Shown here one piece after another: positions 37,167-47,404 of a stretch of DNA of 64,000 nucleotides. Under the pieces are notes generated by a model that saw only the letters and a list, made by a program, of their open reading frames with translations, ran no database searches and had not been told where the DNA came from. The stretch spans positions 1 to 64,000 of IMG/VR virus record IMGVR_UViG_3300048033_000857; one strand, given 5' to 3'. The number at the start of each line of letters is the position of its first letter. Positions within the stretch are counted from its first letter, which is position 1. Source of the DNA: a virus. A program made the position numbers and the translations under genes.

Positions 37167-37221
37167 AGTGTTTAGCCCTCTTGCTATGTTTAACTTACTC
37201 TATTAGTATAGCATCTATATG

Positions 37222-37401
37222 CTATGTGTCAACCCCTAATGGCTCTGCTTCAACACTTGCTTCTGCCATTTCAAACATTGCATACAGCATGTCAATGCAC
37301 TTGGCTTCGTTCTTCATGCTCAATGGCAGCTCACGGATCAGTTCTTCTACTGTGTCTAGTGTTGTGTCCAATTGCTCAAGTGTGTGTGCTACAGTCTTCA
37401 T
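37222..37401 (-). CDS. 59-aa acidic early protein (not in ORF track)
   Basis: MKTVAHTLEQLDTTLDTVEELIRELP...; AGGAG RBS. Confidence 0.65.
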   Translation of the reverse strand: MKTVAHTLEQLDTTLDTVEELIRELPLSMKNEAKCIDMLYAMFEMAEASVEAEPLGVDT

Positions 37402-37411
37402 AGTGTTCTCC

Positions 37412-37687
37412 TTAGTACAGTTCGTATACAGTTGGTGCGTTTAGATTGTTTGCGTTACAGTATGCTTCAAGCTCACGGCATACTGTAGCTAGGAAGCGAT
37501 ACTTGCGCTGTGCTTCTGCGTTAGATATCTCTCCATCACAGTGCAAGTTCTCTGGCGATAGTTTGCTGTCCAGTGTACGTGCCAAGTCATTCACTTGAGT
37601 CTGGCTCAGTGGAAATGTCATTGGAGCTGTGTTGAAGAATGCGATCCAACGGTTGTTGTCATCGATGAAGTTCTTTAGGTTTTGCAT
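37412..37687 (-). CDS. Early hypothetical protein
   Basis: LSPENLHCDGE motif; promoter and GAGGGC RBS. Confidence 0.75.
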   Translation of the reverse strand: MQNLKNFIDDNNRWIAFFNTAPMTFPLSQTQVNDLARTLDSKLSPENLHCDGEISNAEAQRKYRFLATVCRELEAYCNANNLNAPTVYELY

Positions 37688-37770
37688 GTGTTTGCCCTCT
37701 ATTGCTTAACTGTTATATACAGTATATGATCAATTAGAGGATATGTCAACCCCTAATTGCAAAAAAGATC

Positions 37771-37977
37771 AAAAAAAAGCCCTAGCATTGGACGAGGGCA
37801 CATCCTGCTAGGGCTTAGTCTAGGAAGCAGAGCGTGAGGGCATACGCTGTTCCACTACCTTAGTTACCTTGCAGCTCTAATGGGCTGCTTCGGTGTACAC
37901 ACACTCGGACGAGGGCTGTCCTCCTGTGTGTTCGAACTAGCACGAGGGCACATGCTAGTTCTACAGTATGCGGAGCT
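37771..37977 (-). ncRNA. Candidate small RNA with four GCCCUC-displaying hairpins ending in an intrinsic terminator
   Basis: Plus-strand GAGGGC at 37794, 37836, 37911, 37944, each centred in a stem; G-U pairs and a U8 tail work on the minus strand. Confidence 0.7.
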
Positions 37978-38979
37978 CTATGCTCGACGCATCACTGTAT
38001 TCTCTGCCATTGCTTCCCACTTGGTAGGGAACGCTTCGGCTAAGTCTGCTACCTTGAGCACTGTACGCAAGCTCAGTTCGCGCAGACGATTTTTATTAAT
38101 ATCTACAAAGTCCATGATGTCCTCTTTGACTTCATCATCAATCTTGCGATCGTCTAACATACCATCCGACACCACTTGCTTGATGCGCAGTACTTTGTCC
38201 TTGTCCGTATCGATAGTCAAGTCCATGTAGTGGCAACGGCTCTCTAGCGCACTCAAGTGCTCACGCAGTTTGCCTTTGACTTTGTCGAACTTCAAGTTGG
38301 TAATGAAGATCGCACTTGCTTCGAACTTAAACTTGTCCGGCACACCTTCGTTGCGCAATTTGAAGCTGTCGGTGTTCCAATGGATCCAACGATTCTTCTT
38401 TGAGTCTAGTGCTGCTTTCAAAATATTAAGGCTTAGATCATCTTGGAAGATGCTGTCACAGTCATCGAACACAACAACCTTGCCTTTGTCTGCCATGTTA
38501 AACAGTTTGCAGTAGAGTCCAATTGGGCTCATCGCACCTTTGATCACTTCGTGTGTCTTGCCTGCACCCAGTGTCTCCATCATAGCATAGCGTTCTAGTA
38601 CTTCTTCTACACCGTGGCTCTTGCCTACACCCGGAGGGCCGCTAACGATCATTGCTCGAACGCTGCCTTTCTTGACGGCTTTGGTCATATCTTTGAGCAT
38701 GTCAAACCGTTCGCGGATGCGCTCTACAATCTCAGCGTCTGACTCTTCGCGTTCGGTTGTCTCGACATTTGCTCCAACCTGCTCGTAACCCTCCGGGCCA
38801 GCAACCTTGATCTTGATGTTGCGATCCGGAAACCCATTTACTGCCGCGCCGTCGACAGTTACGTAACCTCCTCGAGCTCCTACTTTGAAACCTTCTACTA
38901 GTGGAAAGACCATGCCTGTCATGTCTACATCTTTACCACGAATCTTATATGTGCCTTCTGTAATTCTAACGTTTGTCAT
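37978..38979 (-). CDS. AAA+/P-loop ATPase, early
   Basis: Walker A GPPGVGKS, Walker B VVVFDDCD, LKAALD, IFITN, ALESR. Confidence 0.85.
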   Translation of the reverse strand: MTNVRITEGTYKIRGKDVDMTGMVFPLVEGFKVGARGGYVTVDGAAVNGFPDRNIKIKVAGPEGYEQVGANVETTEREESDAEIVERIRERFDMLKDMTKAVKKGSVRAMIVSGPPGVGKSHGVEEVLERYAMMETLGAGKTHEVIKGAMSPIGLYCKLFNMADKGKVVVFDDCDSIFQDDLSLNILKAALDSKKNRWIHWNTDSFKLRNEGVPDKFKFEASAIFITNLKFDKVKGKLREHLSALESRCHYMDLTIDTDKDKVLRIKQVVSDGMLDDRKIDDEVKEDIMDFVDINKNRLRELSLRTVLKVADLAEAFPTKWEAMAENTVMRRA

Positions 38980-39018
38980 ATCGCCCTCTTTGTTTCTAAC
39001 TATACGTATACTATACTA

Positions 39019-39183
39019 TCAGTTTCGAATCCTGTCAACCAAAGATTCGTCTGTTTGTTCAACAATTAATTTAGCACCAGAGTTGATTTGGCTGCGAGCA
39101 AAGTCACTCAGCTGCTGAGTCTGCTCAGGGAATGTGGTCATTGCAGCCACACCAATCACGATACCAATTGCTAGTTTGATCAT
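39019..39183 (-). CDS. Small protein with N-terminal hydrophobic segment
   Basis: Start MIKLAIGIVIGVAAM after GGAGGAG. Confidence 0.6.
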   Translation of the reverse strand: MIKLAIGIVIGVAAMTTFPEQTQQLSDFARSQINSGAKLIVEQTDESLVDRIRN

Positions 39184-39184
39184 C

Positions 39185-39526
39185 TTAAAACTCCTCCGGA
39201 TAACCACGTGTAACTGAGTTACCACGCTTGGGCGACACTACCATCACCTGCTCTTTGAGGAAGTCACGATAGTCTGCATCGTCTGGCAGCTTGCTGATCC
39301 ACTCAGCTTCTGACTGCCACTCTACTGGAAACTCCTTAGCACCAATGCCATTCTCCATTGCAATTGCTGCAACGAACGCAACAGCATCCTGGATGCGATC
39401 CAAGTCCTGGACTAGGTAGTCACTGCCACCCTTCATCTTCCAGTATGCATTGCCTGAGGAGAACTTACCGTCCTCGCAGTGTGCGCCGTAGTTTTCAAGG
39501 AACTGTGTTGTGATTACGAAATTCAT
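39185..39526 (-). CDS. Early hypothetical protein
   Basis: TQFLENYGAH..YWKMKGG; GAGGG RBS. Confidence 0.72.
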   Translation of the reverse strand: MNFVITTQFLENYGAHCEDGKFSSGNAYWKMKGGSDYLVQDLDRIQDAVAFVAAIAMENGIGAKEFPVEWQSEAEWISKLPDDADYRDFLKEQVMVVSPKRGNSVTRGYPEEF

Positions 39527-39573
39527 TTGCAAACCCTCTTGCTGTTGCCCTAACTGTTATATACAGTATATGA

Positions 39574-39849
39574 TCACTTGCGCTCGATGTCAACCTTTTT
39601 CTGCATGAATTTGGAAATTAATTCCATGTCAGCTTCGGAGAAGTCGTTGCGGCCTGTGCCAAATGGAGCACCATAATGAGTGAGTGCATTGCCTACATGG
39701 CTTAGATCGTTGAGTGTACGCAAGCCGTTATCCGTTACACCTTTGAGTCCGTGGATCTTACCGTACTCTTCGGAGAAGTCCATCATCTCGCGTCCAATGG
39801 AGATCAGTTTGCGTTCTTGTGCTGTTGCTTCGTAGAATGATTGTGCCAT
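39574..39849 (-). CDS. Early hypothetical protein
   Basis: Start MAQSFY after GAGGGC and a promoter. Confidence 0.7.
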   Translation of the reverse strand: MAQSFYEATAQERKLISIGREMMDFSEEYGKIHGLKGVTDNGLRTLNDLSHVGNALTHYGAPFGTGRNDFSEADMELISKFMQKKVDIERK

Positions 39850-39956
39850 GTTTGCCCTCGTTTGTTTAATTGTTATATACAGTATACGCTCACTTAGAAC
39901 GTTTGTCAACCCCTAATTTGGGAGTCCGCTCCAATCATCACATGGATCATCATACA

Positions 39957-40244
39957 TTATGCTGGCTCCTCTTCACCAAAGGTTGCATCATCTAACTCGG
40001 CCAACTCTTCTACTTCACGACCTTCTGCGAACAACAACAACTCTACAGCCAACATCCGTGCTTGGTGCTTGGTCAACTCTATGTGATTGTGAAAGCCATC
40101 TGATGTAGTAGGTTTCTGGAAGCCTCGTGGTTTGCGTTGAGTTATCTGTATGCAAGTCAATCGATCCTTGCCACCCCAGAAGCGAGTCTGAGTCAATTCG
40201 TTCTGTGCTACACAGTCTGGGACGTTTCTTAATTCTGTTGACAT
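39957..40244 (-). CDS. Early hypothetical protein
   Basis: TRFWGG.DR..C.Q.T; promoter and GGAGGGC. Confidence 0.7.
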   Translation of the reverse strand: MSTELRNVPDCVAQNELTQTRFWGGKDRLTCIQITQRKPRGFQKPTTSDGFHNHIELTKHQARMLAVELLLFAEGREVEELAELDDATFGEEEPA

Positions 40245-40315
40245 TTGGATTGCCCTCCTAATTTCTAACTATACATACAGTATATGATCTAAAGTTGAGT
40301 TTGTCAACCCCTAAT

Positions 40316-40513
40316 TTAATCTAAATCACATTCCCACACATCATTGCGGAACTGTGCTCGCAGCGCACCTAGCGGATAGTCTGCGTGTTCGAACAGCATG
40401 TAAGGTGCACCATCATAGTCCAACTTGATTGTGTGTACAGTGACTTCGTCCATTGGCAACCACTTTGGTGCTTCGATGCTTCCGTTGTATGCTGAGTTGA
40501 ATACTTTGATCAT
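40316..40513 (-). CDS. Early hypothetical protein
   Basis: Promoter and GGAGGGC RBS. Confidence 0.65.
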   Translation of the reverse strand: MIKVFNSAYNGSIEAPKWLPMDEVTVHTIKLDYDGAPYMLFEHADYPLGALRAQFRNDVWECDLD

Positions 40514-40584
40514 TGGATGCCCTCCATTGCTTCTAACTATACATACACTATAGCACAGGATTCTTTACCTGTCAACCGAAAAAG

Positions 40585-40652
40585 TACGGGGAGGAGCAAT
40601 TAATTCTCCTACGATGAGGGCGGTCGCTTAGAGTATGCTACCACTCCCCGTA
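40585..40652 (-). ncRNA. 68-nt structured element 3' of tRNA-Leu with a GCCCUC loop
   Basis: 9-bp closing stem TACGGGGAG/CTCCCCGTA; internal CGACC-GCCCTC-ATCG and GGAG..CTCC hairpins; U-tract follows on the minus strand. Confidence 0.5.
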
Positions 40653-40655
40653 TTC

Positions 40656-40739
40656 TGGTGCCGCCACCGAGACTCGAACTCGGACGCCATAAGCGAGGGA
40701 TTTTAAGTCCCTTGTGTCTACCTATTCCACCATGGCGGC
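40656..40739 (-). tRNA. tRNA-Leu(UAA)
   Basis: GCCGCCA/TGGCGGC acceptor, anticodon loop CTTAAAA, long variable arm, GTTCGA, encoded CCA. Confidence 0.93.
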
Positions 40740-40844
40740 TTATGTCCACGCCAACCCCGGGCAAATCTATTAATAGTCCCAGAGCCTGACAGTCGCTATG
40801 TGATCTCCTACCTCAGCGTAATCGGTAAGGAACGCTGTCGTTGT

Positions 40845-40921
40845 TGGCCTGCCCTGCAGGATTCGAACCTGCGACCCACAGCTTAGAAGGCTGTTGCTCT
40901 ATCCAGCTGAGCTAAGGGCAG
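40845..40921 (-). tRNA. tRNA-Arg(UCU)
   Basis: CTGCCCT/AGGGCAG acceptor, loop CTTCTAA, GGTTCGAATCC, CCA. Confidence 0.93.
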
Positions 40922-40926
40922 TTATT

Positions 40927-41003
40927 TGGTGGGCCCTCCGAGACTCGAACTCGGAACCTACGGATTATGAGTCCGGTGCTCTAACCAATTGAGCTAAGAG
41001 CCC
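40927..41003 (-). tRNA. tRNA with CAU anticodon, probably Ile2 (lysidine type)
   Basis: GGGCTCTTAGCTCAATTGGTTAGAGCA..CTCATAA..GTTCGAGTC..CCA; lacks the initiator C1:A72 mismatch and GGG/CCC anticodon stem. Confidence 0.85.
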
Positions 41004-41011
41004 TTAGGATC

Positions 41012-41182
41012 TTACGATCCTGAAAAAGCAAACTCCTCTTGTATATCAGATTCAAACTGAGCAACCTTTTGCTCTGCTTCTTCGATCATGCCTAGCAAGA
41101 TAACATCTGCTAGGTCTGTGTTGTTGTGTATAATGCGGCGAACGCCTTCAAGTCTTTCGATCAGTTGTAGTTGGTCTACCAT
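41012..41182 (-). CDS. 56-aa early protein (not in ORF track)
   Basis: MVDQLQLIERLEGVRR...; promoter at 41237 and GAGGG RBS. Confidence 0.6.
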   Translation of the reverse strand: MVDQLQLIERLEGVRRIIHNNTDLADVILLGMIEEAEQKVAQFESDIQEEFAFSGS

Positions 41183-41251
41183 TCTGTTTCCCTCTTCGTT
41201 TCAACTTATATACAGTATGCACTCGAAAGCGCATACTGTCAACCATTATTT

Positions 41252-41734
41252 TTAGATATCGTAGCCTTGTGCCTTCAAGCGAGCCACTTCAAGTGTTACC
41301 TGAGTCTCCAAGTCGTCGAAGATTGGAAAGCCGTTTGCATCGTTGCCTACGTTATAACGATCGTGTACAATCCAACCTGCTGCGGTGTGCAGGTAAAAGT
41401 ATTCGCATCCGCTGTCTGTGTAGTATTCAACCATCTCCTGCACAGTGTCAAACTCTTGTGCGTCTACACGAGTCTCGCCACGGTCACGTCCGTAAAATAC
41501 AGTAACGCCTTCTTCCGGAGTGTCAAAGCTGTGTCCGCTGCCTGGCATTGGAAAAATTTCTTCTGCCATGTAGCTCTGATCGCCTAGCTCTACCATCTGC
41601 GCAATCTTGCGAGCCTGTTGGTAGTGCTCTTGCAGCGTACGGCCTGCGCCTACTACATAGCCATCATAGTGTGAATATTTTGCACGGATCTTGCCTTCTG
41701 GTGTTTTGTAACCAATTGCAGCTCTAGTTCCCAT
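41252..41734 (-). CDS. Early phage protein (MGTR..IG / H.DGY family)
   Basis: MGTRAAIG, YSHYDGY, YGRDRGE, EYFYL. Confidence 0.78.
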   Translation of the reverse strand: MGTRAAIGYKTPEGKIRAKYSHYDGYVVGAGRTLQEHYQQARKIAQMVELGDQSYMAEEIFPMPGSGHSFDTPEEGVTVFYGRDRGETRVDAQEFDTVQEMVEYYTDSGCEYFYLHTAAGWIVHDRYNVGNDANGFPIFDDLETQVTLEVARLKAQGYDI

Positions 41735-41780
41735 TGTAGTACCCTCTTTGCTAATTTATATATACACTATAACACAGCTC

Positions 41781-41990
41781 TTAGACTGTGTCAACCTCTT
41801 TTTCATACATTTCTACAGTTTCTTCAAACTGCTCTGCAAGCGAACGCAAGCTCATCATCGCAAACTCTTCTGTGATGCTGCCCGCTTCTGCTTCGTCTAG
41901 TGTCCGGATGCGTTCTGCCATCATCTCTGCGATTGCTTTATAGCTGCCACATTCACGTGCTGTCTTCATGCTGTGATCAATAAATGTCAT
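41781..41990 (-). CDS. Early hypothetical protein
   Basis: Promoter and GAGGGC RBS. Confidence 0.65.
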   Translation of the reverse strand: MTFIDHSMKTARECGSYKAIAEMMAERIRTLDEAEAGSITEEFAMMSLRSLAEQFEETVEMYEKEVDTV

Positions 41991-42053
41991 TGTGTTGCCC
42001 TCTTTGCTAATTTATATATACAGTATATGATCTAACTGCGGGGTTGTCAACCC

Positions 42054-42332
42054 CTAATTTGCATATTCACGATTCTTTTTGAGCTGCCACTTCTCTAGCA
42101 CAGGCAAGCCAAACTCGTCCTCGTCTACGCAGACATATGCCACAGTCTTCTTGACAATACCGTAACGGTAGCCTCGCATGCCGCACACGCCTTCGCCGCC
42201 TACCCAAACCTTGTGTGGGAAGTCTTCGCACATGCTGATCGGATCGTCGTTGACACTATACTCGAAATAGTTGCCGGTGTCCCGCTCTACGAAACAACCT
42301 ATTGGATCTTTGGTGTGTGTCCAGTATGCCAT
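42054..42332 (-). CDS. Early hypothetical protein
   Basis: G.F.E...GN.FEY, KKTVAY...DEDE.G; coupled to the upstream stop codon. Confidence 0.7.
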   Translation of the reverse strand: MAYWTHTKDPIGCFVERDTGNYFEYSVNDDPISMCEDFPHKVWVGGEGVCGMRGYRYGIVKKTVAYVCVDEDEFGLPVLEKWQLKKNREYAN

Positions 42333-42439
42333 TACTTGTGCCCTTTCAACAGTGCGTGAATCAGTTTGGCTTCTTTGCCTTTGATGCGAGGATCTTTTTT
42401 GATCGCTTCATCTACTGCTTTCTTGTTGTAAGTTGCCAT
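42332..42439 (-). CDS. 35-aa basic microprotein (not in ORF track)
   Basis: MATYNKKAVDEAIKKDPRIKGKEAKLIHALLKGHK*; promoter at 42495 and GGAGGGC. Confidence 0.65.
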   Translation of the reverse strand: MATYNKKAVDEAIKKDPRIKGKEAKLIHALLKGHK

Positions 42440-42496
42440 TGGAGCCCTCCGTTTGCCTAACTGTTAATAATACTATAACACCGAAGGGCTCACTTG

Positions 42497-42670
42497 TCAA
42501 CCTTTTTCTGCGATTTTTCTTCCGATCATGCTGAGTAGTAGACTGCGAGCAAGATCAACACGACCACAATCGATCTGACGCAACACTGCTTCAAGACTCT
42601 CCTGACTGGTGTCATAGCCACCTGCGTTAGGTTCAACTGCCCACAGCATAGGGTTCTCTGGTTTACTCAT
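42497..42670 (-). CDS. Early hypothetical protein
   Basis: Start MSKPEN overlapping the end of the upstream gene. Confidence 0.55.
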   Translation of the reverse strand: MSKPENPMLWAVEPNAGGYDTSQESLEAVLRQIDCGRVDLARSLLLSMIGRKIAEKG

Positions 42671-43208
42671 CTGCCATTTCTTCTTCTTTCCACATCTCGA
42701 AGTTCTCAACCAGAGCATACTCTTCGTCTAGGCGATTAAACAAGTCCGAACGCTCGTCTTCTGGCAGCTCGCATTGCTCTGTGAGGTTGTCGCAGTATTC
42801 GTCGCCACCTTCGCTATGCCAAAAGCCTGCAAAGTCCATACCAGGCTCGTGATAACTTGCCTGGATGTCACAGTTATCCATATCGTCACAGAACTGCTCG
42901 TAAGCACCAATAGGCGGAGCCCATGCACTGTCAAACCAACCAGTGATCTCGGCTGTTCCGTCTTCGTTGTCGATATACTCCAATCCTTCGTCGGAGACAT
43001 CCCACTTGGTGCCCCAACTGTTGACTCGCCACGAATACCAATCTGGACCGTCTGGGTTAGGAGCAGTTGTGCCTTCTAGCTCTTTAGGCATAGGCGCCAT
43101 TGCATTGAGTAGACCAAAGTCCTCGCCTACGTGAGCATCGTCCCACAGTTGCTTGATGGTCTCAGTTGGACCGGAGATTGTGATTGAGTTGTTGCACCAA
43201 TTTGGCAT
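42663..43208 (-). CDS. DUF1281/YubB ferredoxin-like family protein
   Basis: MPNWCNN, WYSWRVNSWGTKWD, FDSAWAPP, Y.EPG.DF.G. Confidence 0.78.
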   Translation of the reverse strand: MPNWCNNSITISGPTETIKQLWDDAHVGEDFGLLNAMAPMPKELEGTTAPNPDGPDWYSWRVNSWGTKWDVSDEGLEYIDNEDGTAEITGWFDSAWAPPIGAYEQFCDDMDNCDIQASYHEPGMDFAGFWHSEGGDEYCDNLTEQCELPEDERSDLFNRLDEEYALVENFEMWKEEEMADE

Positions 43209-43222
43209 AGTAGTTCTCCCTC

Positions 43223-43405
43223 TTAGTATTCGTCGATTAAAAATGCGTCTTCGTCTTCCTGGAAGCGTTCGGAAAGCTCGTTTGCGTCTAGCATGTCTTC
43301 AACTTCGTCTGTTGACATATACTTGAGTGCCATAGTCAGCATGTCTTCTGCTGATACTAGGCCTTCTTCTACCAATGCTAGTGCTGCGTCTCTTGAATCA
43401 AACAT
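43223..43405 (-). CDS. Small acidic early protein
   Basis: LKYMSTDEVEDMLDANEL; promoter and GAGGGC. Confidence 0.7.
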   Translation of the reverse strand: MFDSRDAALALVEEGLVSAEDMLTMALKYMSTDEVEDMLDANELSERFQEDEDAFLIDEY

Positions 43406-43556
43406 ATTGTTGCCCTCTTTTGTTTAACTTATACATACACTATAGCACGGGTGTATGCAGTTGTCAACCCCTAAATTAAACTTTTTTAAAGTGTGTTACA
43501 GCGGGGCCTGCGGGTGTGCGCACTATAGCACAGTGTGCGCTATAGTGCAAGTTTTT

Positions 43557-43829
43557 TTAACTTTCGTATTTTACTCCTACTAAGCGCAAATAGCGTCCTC
43601 CAAATGTAGTATGCACTTTGTCACATCCTACTAGCAGCTTTAACCATTTGCAGTCACCTTCTGTAAAACGTTCTCCTACAATACCAAAGCACAAGTTGCG
43701 TTTAGCTGCATCCTTAGCATTGTCTTTCCAAACTACGTTAGTCCAACTGTTCCAAAAACTAGCATTCTTTTCTGCTAGTACAGTTGCAACCAATTTACGT
43801 GCTTGTTTAGTGTTTAGTTCATAGCGCAT
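43557..43829 (-). CDS. Early hypothetical protein (GA/GG-free zone)
   Basis: Start MRYELN after GGAGGGC; no Pro. Confidence 0.68.
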   Translation of the reverse strand: MRYELNTKQARKLVATVLAEKNASFWNSWTNVVWKDNAKDAAKRNLCFGIVGERFTEGDCKWLKLLVGCDKVHTTFGGRYLRLVGVKYES

Positions 43830-43905
43830 ATAAAGCCCTCCATATGCTGTTACGTTATACAAGCACTATAGCATAAACTACAGTGCTTGTCAAGTGTTTT
43901 TTAAA

Positions 43906-44259
43906 TTATGTTTCTAAGCTAGCAACTCCGTCGTCTTGCATGCCTTGCTCCGTAAATGTTACGTCAAAGCCTAGCGCAACACTTATGCTCTCCTCAAAGC
44001 CATCGTCTGTGTATATGCGCCAATCGCCTGTGCCGTTTGCGTTGTGCTCCACATAAATCATTGTGCTAGTGTCGCCATCCTCATATGTCATCTCATGTAC
44101 TTCCACAGCACTAACACCTACACGCAAGTCACCTGCATATCCCCATATGCTGCTGCCGTTGCACTCCGCAAAGCCGTTTGCGTCCCAACGTGTTACAACA
44201 CAGCTATAGTCTTCGTCTGCGTGTGTTGTACGTGTTGTTTTGTTTTTTAATGTAAGCAT
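43906..44259 (-). CDS. Acidic early hypothetical protein (GA/GG-free zone)
   Basis: Start MLTLKN after GAGGGC; IYTDDGFE...FTEQGMQ; no Pro. Confidence 0.72.
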   Translation of the reverse strand: MLTLKNKTTRTTHADEDYSCVVTRWDANGFAECNGSSIWGYAGDLRVGVSAVEVHEMTYEDGDTSTMIYVEHNANGTGDWRIYTDDGFEESISVALGFDVTFTEQGMQDDGVASLET

Positions 44260-44351
44260 AGTTTGCCCTCTTTGCTTTGTTAACTTATACATACACTATA
44301 GCACAAGTGTGCGCTGCTGTCAACTAAAAAATGCTAACAGCAGCAACTTTT

Positions 44352-44702
44352 TTATGCAGCAAGCGCACTAGTATACTTTGCATAGTTGTTGCGTAGTTTA
44401 GCATACTGCGGATAAGCTGCGTCTGCTTGCTGCTGTAGCTTAAACAATAGCACACTGTTAGCACTAGTGCATGTGTAGTTGGGATAGCTTTTAGCTAAGT
44501 GTATAAACTGTTTAGCGGGCACACTTGTTAGCTGCACTGTGCTTGCATGCACACGGTAGTCGCTTGCTATGCTTGCGTTAGCAAACAAATACATAGTTAC
44601 GTTTAGCATGTTAGTGTTTTTGTTTACGCTTTTAACTAGTGCTAAACGCTGTGTGTTTTTATAGTTTACTAGTACTACGCTGTTACGTTTAATGTTTTGC
44701 AT
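44352..44702 (-). CDS. Basic early hypothetical protein
   Basis: Start MQNIKR after AGAGGGC; no Glu, Gly or Trp. Confidence 0.65.
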   Translation of the reverse strand: MQNIKRNSVVLVNYKNTQRLALVKSVNKNTNMLNVTMYLFANASIASDYRVHASTVQLTSVPAKQFIHLAKSYPNYTCTSANSVLLFKLQQQADAAYPQYAKLRNNYAKYTSALAA

Positions 44703-44794
44703 ATTATAGCCCTCTATGCTGTTAACGTTATATAAACAATATAGCACAAGCAGCGCACTTTGTAAAGTAAAAAATGCGCTGCTGTGTAAGTTTT

Positions 44795-45058
44795 TTATGC
44801 TAGTGCTTCAAATGCTTCATCTATTATATTATGCGCACTTGCGTCACTTGCAAAGCCCTCTTCTTCTGCAAAATCTATGCTGCTGCTACACATAATAACG
44901 TCTGTAAGCACATTAACGTTATGTGTTAAAAACACTTGCACAAGTGCGTCTGCTGTTTGTACGTCTGTTGCTACAACTGTGTTATTTACAGTTACAACAA
45001 TTGCAGCGTTGCAAGCGTTTAAAAATACGTTGTTTGTTTTTGTAGTTGTGTTTTGCAT
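44795..45058 (-). CDS. Early hypothetical protein
   Basis: Start MQNTTT; CSSSIDFAEEEGF. Confidence 0.68.
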   Translation of the reverse strand: MQNTTTKTNNVFLNACNAAIVVTVNNTVVATDVQTADALVQVFLTHNVNVLTDVIMCSSSIDFAEEEGFASDASAHNIIDEAFEALA

Positions 45059-45138
45059 ATTATAGCCCTCTATGCTTGTTAACTTATACATACACTATAG
45101 CATTAAAAGTGTAGTTTGTAAAGAGAAAAGTTTTGTTT

Positions 45139-45180
45139 AAAAACAAGCACTTAGCATTTTTCTTGTAAGTGCTTGTTTTT
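45139..45180. repeat. Inverted repeat made of two IHF-like sites (possible terminator)
   Basis: AAAAACAAGCACTTA ... TAAGTGCTTGTTTTT. Confidence 0.6.
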
Positions 45181-45185
45181 GTTAG

Positions 45186-45353
45186 TTAAATTTCCTCTAA
45201 GCAGCGTTCTACTGTGTCTACTACAACGTAAGCGTCTGCTGCTGCGTTAAGCAGTACTAGTGCTTTTTGTGCTTCTTCAAATGTAGCAAAAGCACTAGCA
45301 ACGCCTGTTGTTAAGTTACAAATAAAGTACGGAAAGTTTACAACGTTTTGCAT
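45186..45353 (-). CDS. 55-aa early protein (not in ORF track)
   Basis: MQNVVNFPYFICNLTTGVASAFATFEEAQKAL...; same leader as its two neighbours. Confidence 0.62.
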   Translation of the reverse strand: MQNVVNFPYFICNLTTGVASAFATFEEAQKALVLLNAAADAYVVVDTVERCLEEI

Positions 45354-45498
45354 ATTATACCCTCTATGCTGTTTAAGTTATACATACACTATAGCACAAA
45401 CGGACACAGCTGTCAACTACTAAATGCATTTAAACGAACAAAAGAACCCTTTGTTTTCAATAGGTTAGCACCTAAAGATTCCTAACGATATCAAACGG

Positions 45499-45831
45499 TT
45501 ACATGCTCCAGTATGTCTCGCTGCTAGGTGACATGTAGTTGGGTGTGTTAACTGGCTCCATAAACTCTTTGCCACCAAACCCCTCTAGCACACGGCGCAG
45601 CACTTTCTTCTCTATAGTAGTGTGGAAATAGTCTGCCTCTGCTATACCATAACGGAACACAGCATGATTCGGATCAGTCTTCAACAACCCCTCTGCCTTT
45701 GCAATTCGAGTGACTGCTGCCTTCGCTGCTGCCATTGTCTTGTAGCTGCAACGGTGATCCGGACGAGCAATACCTGTGCGATCTGGCTTGCCAATAATGT
45801 AGGTTGAAGTCTTTTCATATACGTAGTACAT
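45499..45831 (-). CDS. Early hypothetical protein
   Basis: YKTMAAAKAAVTR, NTPNYMSPSSETYWSM; promoter and GAGGGC. Confidence 0.75.
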   Translation of the reverse strand: MYYVYEKTSTYIIGKPDRTGIARPDHRCSYKTMAAAKAAVTRIAKAEGLLKTDPNHAVFRYGIAEADYFHTTIEKKVLRRVLEGFGGKEFMEPVNTPNYMSPSSETYWSM

Positions 45832-45879
45832 AGTAGTGCCCTCTTTGTTTCTAACTTATACATACACTATACAGTCATA

Positions 45880-47122: not shown

Positions 47123-47404
47123 ATGTATGAATCGATCAATGATGTTGTAGAGGGCACAAGTGTTGCTTGTAAGTTTCGAGTGGAGACTATGTTGGATACC
47201 CTAGGTCGTCCGGCACCAAATCTTTCGGACACGCCCTTGGCAGGGGTTGGAGTCTATGAGAGCTTGGGCGTTATTATGCAGCGTGATCATGCTCAGGGTG
47301 TGGTCAAGCTAGAAGACACAGCAAGCAAACGTCAGTTTGTTGTGGAGTATGCCAACATATGGGACATCGATGACGTTGAGTGGCAGGACCCATTGGATGG
47401 CTAG
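47123..47404 (+). CDS. Hypothetical protein
   Basis: Promoter and RBS. Confidence 0.68.
   Translation: MYESINDVVEGTSVACKFRVETMLDTLGRPAPNLSDTPLAGVGVYESLGVIMQRDHAQGVVKLEDTASKRQFVVEYANIWDIDDVEWQDPLDG

Follow-up and report, generated by a model that had tools for sequence, protein, structure and literature searches.

Small RNAs left over from tRNA precursors have been described in bacteria, and RNAs that pair with ribosome-binding sites in both bacteria and phages. In Escherichia coli, RNase E releases 3′ETS-leuZ, the 3′ external transcribed spacer of the tRNA operon glyW-cysT-leuZ; this RNA base-pairs with other RNAs and sponges the small RNAs (sRNAs) RyhB and RybB via a single-stranded ARN-rich sequence on Hfq (bioRxiv 10.1101/2021.04.25.441314). 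The cellular cuckoo/CcsR RNAs of Alphaproteobacteria, found in a DUF1127 context and processed from a 3′ untranslated region (UTR), consist of two to four adjacent hairpins with CCUCCUCCC in each loop (PMC4615179, PMC8034643). RsaE and other Rsa RNAs of Firmicutes use a UCCC motif (PMC2790875), and the icaR 3′ UTR a UCCCCUG motif (PMC3868564), to pair with the Shine-Dalgarno sequence or region and block the initiation complex. In phages P1 and P7, the c4 antisense RNA is cut from its precursor by the tRNA-processing enzyme RNase P, and its loops pair around the ribosome-binding site of one target operon (ant) and block translation, a form of immunity control in temperate phages (PMC12197685, PMC11143913). 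In phage T4, the target of RegB cleavage is GGAG, which often serves as the Shine-Dalgarno word of early genes, and about 30 mRNAs are subject to competition between RegA and the ribosome (PMC3014915). Against this background, we analysed a 68-nucleotide (nt) hairpin element encoded directly behind a tRNA-Leu gene (positions 40585..40652, minus strand) of the uncultured aquatic phage fragment IMGVR_UViG_3300048033_000857, whose apical loop contains the word GCCCUC, the exact complement of a tag, GAGGGC, located ahead of the start codons of 13 early genes. The window referred to throughout is the stretch of 64,000 nt that was analysed, that is, the first 64 kb of this 83-kb IMG/VR fragment, for which the CheckV completeness estimate is 23%.

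The element belongs to none of the systems compared, although it is related in kind to RNAs from tRNA trailers and to loop RNAs directed against ribosome sites. By origin, it is closest to 3′ETS-leuZ, which likewise comes from the trailer that follows the final tRNA of a polycistronic transcript, terminal hairpin included, and the element occupies the corresponding position between the CCA of the last tRNA and the predicted transcript end. However, the partners of 3′ETS-leuZ are sRNAs, whereas those proposed here are the ribosome-site tags of approximately 13–16 phage early mRNAs, and the pairing sequence is single-stranded in the former but a hairpin-loop word in the latter. In design, the element comes nearest to the cuckoo/CcsR RNAs, with which it shares variable stems and one C-rich loop word (CCUCCUCCC versus GCCCUC), although the element is a single hairpin with the loop CCGCCCUCA, located behind phage tRNAs and without a match in Rfam. 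Like RsaE and the icaR 3′ UTR, the element presents an unpaired C-rich word complementary to a G-rich ribosome-binding region, the pairing being predicted in our case: its loop is kept open at a cost of 0.1 kcal/mol, and a 6–7 nt complement lies 3–8 nt ahead of 13 ATG codons. RsaE and icaR target the ordinary cellular Shine-Dalgarno sequence, whereas GAGGGC appears private to one temporal class of phage messages and the complementary word resides on a tRNA trailer. By host, the element is closest to c4, also a phage small RNA with loop pairing at a ribosome site (predicted here), but c4 has a different fold, a single target operon and no tRNA neighbours; the element has no match to the curated c4 family in Rfam at E ≤ 10. 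By role, the closest are RegB and RegA, which are proteins, in contrast to the RNA agent proposed here, and act on initiation regions in a class-wide shut-off of early messages. In the literature covered, which for the most part did not include subscription journals and supplements, we found no description of GCCCUC loops or GAGGGC tags in phages.

Three bases (GAA) separate the CCA of tRNA-Leu from the start of the element at position 40652. The element is delimited by a closing stem of 9 base pairs (bp), with the 5′ arm UACGGGGAG at 40644..40652 and the 3′ arm CUCCCCGUA at 40585..40593, and is followed by a CUUUUU run (40579..40584; all on the minus strand). The inner part (40594..40641), delineated by sequence comparison and the RNAalifold consensus, comprises a second helix, internal loops and the apical hairpin. 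In the second helix, element positions G12 and A14–A17 pair with U55–C59 around one bulged U; this helix is homologous to GAGCA/UGCUC of the related loci L025 and L011. The apical hairpin (40611..40627), present in both the minimum free energy (MFE) and centroid folds, consists of the 4-bp stem GCGA/UCGU with one G·U pair (40624–40627 with 40611–40614) and the 9-nt loop CCGCCCUCA (40615–40623), in which GCCCUC occupies positions 40616..40621. The MFE and centroid structures, as well as the RNAalifold consensus of the three closest sequences (the window, L025 and L011), represent one extended, unbranched hairpin. An initial annotation, made from the sequence alone, described the element largely correctly: its coordinates, the distance to the tRNA-Leu CCA, the 9-bp stem and the following Us are confirmed, as is the GCCCUC tip of the central hairpin. 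The CGAC/AUCG stem assigned to that hairpin has to be replaced, because it contains a C·A mismatch and GCGA/UCGU folds instead, and a second GGAG/CUCC hairpin has to be abandoned, since it would compete for bases with the final closing-stem pair, neither the MFE nor the centroid fold contains it, and the sequences of relatives do not permit it.

The element alone has an MFE of −24.9 kcal/mol and a z-score of −2.8 (2 of 200 shuffles fold as well), and together with its flanks the z-score is −3.2, matched by 1 of 200 shuffles. In a crude stem-length control, the observed length was attained by 20 of 300 shuffles; with G·U pairs allowed and stems permitted at any place in 100 nt, this control yielded runs of at least 8 pairs in 999 of 3300 shuffles, and it was judged too lenient for any weight to be placed on it. 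Single-sequence fold statistics are only moderate, and the strong evidence for the element is comparative.

For the comparative analysis, we collected 122 related loci (denoted by L numbers), 63 via the ATPase protein encoded in the early block and 59 more via a conserved early-leader word. ARAGORN detects 107 tRNAs in 46 of these loci, and the Met/Arg/Leu tRNA cluster recurs with shuffled tRNA order. A homologous hairpin with a GCCCTC tip and a closing stem of 8–14 bp is found in 10 of the 31 distinct tRNA-cluster 3′ flanks (11 of 32 counting the window; one flank was too short and was left out). All ten homologues are on the tRNA strand and start 1–11 nt past the final CCA of the cluster; the last tRNA is tRNA-Arg in five cases, tRNA-Leu in four and tRNA-Met in one. 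MAFFT alignments match the closing stem but not the interior, and hence the closing stem alone was counted. Across the 11 sequences, 10 of which are distinct, 97.7% of its cells are paired, the only two unpaired cells being gaps of L011 that are out of register in the alignment, and both sides have changed in seven of the nine pairs. The number of compensatory cells is 31, compared with 10.0 ± 2.8 in column shuffles (none of 500 attains 31), and sliding the partner by 1–3 columns reduces pairing to 39–63% of cells. The second helix is replaced by other complementary sequences in L014, L140 and L028, whereas the columns of the loop word GCCCUC are invariant or nearly so. We built a covariance model from these 11 sequences and used it to scan the window and the loci, 851 kb in total. 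The 11 training elements were recovered by construction, with the window element scoring 44.1 bits as the best match in the window, and the only other matches were weak (20–31 bits), to terminal hairpins of the ATPase 3′ UTRs of L016, L012, L034, L015 and L011. The element is a conserved, unannotated structured RNA whose place is at the end of the tRNA cluster, and ten related contigs keep the hairpin, its covarying stem and the loop word.

The loop word and its complement have a characteristic distribution in the window and its relatives. GCCCTC is present in 26 copies in the window, versus 9.0 ± 3.0 expected, a count matched in none of 100 shuffles, and the plus-strand copies read GAGGGC on the minus strand. 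On that strand, 13 early genes in the interval 37175–45843 have GAGGGC 3–8 nt ahead of their ATG; the tags of these proposed targets start at 45843, 45070, 44714, 44270, 43840, 43417, 42002, 40524, 40257, 39859, 38988, 37699 and 37180, each extending 6 nt downward. When the promoter-proximal minus-strand genes of the early block are considered, 16 of 17 have GAGGG(N), and in the relatives GAGGGC is found at 218 of 784 gene starts. The minus strand of the 83-kb record contains eight GCCCTC copies, five of which are in convincing hairpin tips, four behind the ATPase gene and one in the element; the remaining three are an ATPase coding word and the copies at 47155 and 15451, on short, doubtful stems. 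The four GCCCUC-tipped hairpins of the ATPase 3′ UTR (37794..37949, minus strand), with loop words at 37944–37949, 37911–37916, 37836–37841 and 37794–37799, end with a U run after the last hairpin. Homologous arrays are located behind the ATPase gene of close relatives, with 111 GCCCTC copies in 39 3′ UTRs. Of the 185 GCCCTC copies on the ATPase strand of 47 close loci, 133 follow the ATPase gene, 9 follow tRNAs, and the 40 classed as other are mostly the ATPase coding word or a mis-set gene end in L008.

The element displays the traits of this hairpin family, namely a variable, covarying stem with a kept GCCCUC, location on the early-gene strand and a position in the non-coding 3′ end of a unit, and GCCCUC-tipped hairpins co-occur with GAGGGC tags at early ribosome-binding sites. 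The element can accordingly be described, at the level of sequence, as one of the GCCCUC-tipped hairpins that recur across the clade, the remainder being located in the early ATPase 3′ UTR. The initial annotation had placed it in the same circuit as the ATPase-linked RNA, and membership in the same GCCCUC-loop system is supported: the loop word and the strand are the same, and both are conserved in ten contigs. With regard to the ATPase gene itself, the GCCCTC at 38634–38639 (minus strand) is a coding word near an invariant G-P-P-G, conserved in many relatives; it is not a hairpin tip and inflates simple motif counts. In many relatives (L003, L014, L024, L041 and others), the first GCCCUC hairpin overlaps the ATPase stop codon (...GAGC-AUAGCCCUCAC-GCUC...), at which the window has no GCCCUC.

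At the level of clades, the two words are also present or absent together. In a sister clade represented by 13 non-identical loci, GAGGGC is present at none of 195 gene starts and there is no GCCCTC behind the ATPase gene. Instead, these phages have AGGAG(T) tags at ribosome sites and a conserved 3′ UTR RNA bearing CUCCUC, with 13 copies in the 13 loci; no trailer hairpin of the GCCCUC kind was found in their tRNA clusters. The sister-clade RNA (L155–L171, 30–120 nt past the ATPase stop) is a long stem enclosing CUCCUCUGUC...CACUCUCACUC. A more distant clade, with ATPases that are approximately 47% identical, has neither GCCCTC nor GAGGGC. When a phage collection was searched at the DNA level with an 801-nt query that included the element, only tRNAs were matched, covering at most 26% of the query, and therefore no cultured close relative is present there; the ATPase protein has its best match there in the PA5oct group (46% identity across 76% of the query), and in the PA5oct homologue the next gene follows 44 nt on, without a hairpin array. 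A search of viral contigs with an exact 16-mer of the loop region returned 30 loci (L066–L095) that share only a word of 16–20 nt; these were treated as chance matches and excluded from all counts.

Collectively, these observations are compatible with a regulatory role, and we give an even chance to what we regard as the most likely reading, in which an RNA derived from the trailer or terminator binds the ribosome sites of early genes and thereby damps or times early translation. The element would be the structured 3′ trailer of an early unit composed of a promoter, an open reading frame (ORF) of 56 amino acids, tRNA-Met, tRNA-Arg, tRNA-Leu and the hairpin. Excision of the tRNAs from the precursor would leave the hairpin as a small stable RNA; release by tRNA processing is plausible, and the position 1–11 nt past the last CCA fits it. 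Through its loop, the hairpin would then bind the GAGGGC tags on early messages by 6 bp, or by 7 bp in the case of the ATPase site of this phage, and compete with the ribosome, so that translation of early genes is damped or timed, and the trailer loop would add to the pool of loops supplied by the ATPase 3′ UTR. Predicted duplexes of the loop with the 13 tags range from −13.3 to −15.8 kcal/mol, and opening of the targets costs 0.6–5.2 kcal/mol. The usual 16S rRNA tail (CCUCC) pairs with only four bases of GAGGGC, and the loop would therefore be a strong competitor. We infer this function from complementarity, position and co-occurrence at the clade level.

Several points weigh against such a role. 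The duplex is just 6 bp at 12 of the 13 targets, and the C immediately 5′ of the loop word in the element calls for a G that only 9 of 260 tag contexts provide; C precedes the loop word in 11 of 55 hairpins. The contrast between clades amounts to one single evolutionary event, and within the GCCCUC clade there is no fine-scale co-variation of loops and tags: L006 and L022 have mostly AAGGGC tags (6:2 and 8:2, respectively) yet keep GCCCUC loops. Furthermore, the element is optional, being absent from 21 of the 31 distinct tRNA flanks, including those of the close relatives L003 (ATPase 89% identical) and L061 (87%), and the fold statistics of the single sequence are, as noted above, only moderate. 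A protein reading the loop would explain its invariance equally well.

The RNA data are assembled contigs of four metatranscriptome runs, which cannot show RNA ends; the contigs came from relatives with other arrangements, and their cover, at or near zero over 40556–40655, says nothing either way on transcription of the element. One 868-nt contig of a relative spans tRNA-Met, tRNA-Arg and tRNA-Leu and continues for 127 letters past the Leu CCA, the start of which resembles an L025-type element. This is a weak hint of co-transcription of the tRNAs and the trailer, with DNA carry-over being possible.

Among the alternatives, the one that fares best, although we consider it unlikely, is that the hairpin is only an intrinsic terminator or a protective 3′-end structure, with the GCCCUC tip carried along as a passenger, for example, following a recombination copy of a terminal ATPase-3′UTR hairpin. 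Indeed, the 9-bp G+C-rich stem in the window is followed by CUUUUU, U runs are also found after the stem in L025, L014 and L140, with four U in L028, and the weak covariance-model matches (20–31 bits) show a resemblance to the terminal ATPase-3′UTR hairpins. The CUUUUU run may serve as a terminator tail, and in the window the element probably does terminate transcription. However, the U run is absent in 6 of the 11 homologues (L011, L016, L009, L042, L022 and L033), a consensus terminator scan did not call the element, and many relatives pass from the CCA directly into the next promoter without a hairpin, so that a terminator is not needed there. The U run is, moreover, partly a conserved block ahead of the next promoter: CUUUUU in the window is part of ...TTTTCGGTTGACA, which directly follows the tRNAs in the element-less L006, L032, L038 and L063. 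To judge from the homologues, termination is not the conserved property, and a passenger tip is difficult to reconcile with a loop word that is invariant while stems and inner parts vary freely. Two further features of these flanks deserve mention. The block (A/C)TTTTTCGG (window 40579–40590; L006, L032, L038, L063) abuts TTGACA upstream of early promoters, hairpin or not; it may belong to the promoter as an upstream element instead of being a terminator tail. In L009, L011, L016 and L042, in which the hairpin lacks a U run, the approximately 100 nt beyond it contain a shared block with ...ATTATAACA... that closes with a short hairpin (GGTTG..CAACC) and a T run; the trailers of these four loci may be longer RNAs.

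We find it quite improbable that the GCCCUC loops are bound by a protein, from the phage or the host, and function as a sponge or as a processing or antitermination signal, with their complementarity to the tags indirect or coincidental. Protein-binding hairpins typically combine one loop word with stems of differing sequence, and the loop stays GCCCUC even where the tags drift to AAGGGC. Nevertheless, the two six-letter words that are best conserved in the early region form an exact pair of reverse complements, and the sister clade lacks both. In addition, a Pfam search with 10 early proteins matched only DUF1281_C and AAA and no RNA-binding domain, which is weak negative evidence.

Very unlikely, in our view, is a more specific version of the pairing, in which the CGCCCUC tip is tuned to the GAGGGCG of the ATPase site and provides feedback on the ATPase in particular, as the initial annotation had suggested. 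The complementarity on which this suggestion was based is real: CGCCCUC is the exact complement of GAGGGCG at 38982–38988, 3 nt ahead of the ATPase ATG, and this is the only GAGGGCG among the 13 sites, forming 7 bp and the best duplex (−15.8 versus about −13.3 kcal/mol). The seventh base pair, however, is not conserved in relatives. The CGCCCUC-tipped relatives L016, L025 and L028 have AAGGGCA, GAGGGCU and AAGGGCA, respectively, at the ATPase site, whereas L014 and L033, with ...GGGCG at that site, bear UGCCCUC tips. The seventh pair is best read as chance, and what survives of the earlier interpretation is the shared GCCCUC-loop system and, as a plausible step, release by tRNA processing, but neither the ATPase-specific feedback nor the tRNA-like shape. 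The latter, and with it a degenerate tRNA or tRNA-like mimic, can be dismissed with near certainty despite the location in a tRNA cluster, the length of approximately 68 nt and the acceptor-like closing stem, because the MFE and alignment folds are one unbranched hairpin, ARAGORN calls only the three tRNAs (as had been anticipated for the element), Rfam at E up to 10 returns over 40500–40760 only the tRNA family and a mascRNA match to the tRNA itself, with none on the element, and the homologues are as short as 43 nt (L016, L009).

The genomic context of the element is that of a phage early region. The 83-kb fragment encodes phage helicases, structural proteins and a tail-fibre-like protein, and its minus strand carries a block of small early-type genes, most of which have their own near-consensus sigma-70-like promoter. 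The tRNA unit starts (41012..41242) with a promoter-like site, TTGACA-17-CATACT (41242–41214), followed by a leader with GAGGGA and the 56-amino-acid ORF (41182–41012). Downstream is the tRNA cluster (40656..41003 including its spacer), predicted by ARAGORN and scoring 58.5–70.5 bits with the Rfam tRNA model, which consists of tRNA-Met(cat) (40927–41003), tRNA-Arg(tct) (40845–40921) and tRNA-Leu(taa) (40656–40739). Past the element, 3 nt beyond the U run, is the promoter-like site TTGACA-17-TATAGT (40547..40575) of the next early cassette, with its tag GAGGGC at 40519–40524 and its gene at 40316–40513; all these features are on the minus strand. Contigs from the riverine metatranscriptome runs X19 and X20 are 90–95% similar to this gene and its leader (40284–40555), at a high depth of 270 and 636, for which DNA carry-over is possible.

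Within the cluster, tRNA-Arg and tRNA-Leu are separated by a 105-nt spacer (40740–40844), whereas the tRNAs of most relatives are 2–13 nt apart. The spacer folds weakly (z −1.2), and a copy that is 86% identical is present ahead of tRNA-Leu in L140 (L140:66–156); in the RNA-library contigs of relatives, tRNA-Arg is joined to tRNA-Leu without it. A GAGGGC also occurs on the minus strand inside the 3′ part of tRNA-Met (40933–40938 in plus-strand numbering), probably by chance, given that relatives carry other bases there.

If the loop does pair with the tag, these phages would possess an RNA-only circuit, in which a class-specific message address is read by loops from leftover 3′ ends. Tentatively, we extend this proposal to a widespread clade of uncultured large aquatic phages, which might run an RNA-only early-gene timer with approximately 15–20 GAGGGC-tagged messages and GCCCUC anti-tag loops supplied, as stable 3′ fragments, by the ATPase 3′ UTR and the tRNA trailer, the latter source being present in roughly one in three of the flanks of tRNA clusters that were examined. 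Such a timer would be an RNA counterpart of T4 RegA/RegB, and, by way of the copy behind the tRNAs, the shut-off of early translation would be tied to the processing of tRNA precursors. Functional tRNA spacers, so far known from 3′ETS-leuZ of E. coli, would be extended to viruses. The 6-nt tag/anti-tag pair is small enough for reporter tests with compensatory mutations, which do not require the host. If true, the proposal would provide a simple, testable account of how early genes are switched off in a large group of abundant uncultured aquatic phages.

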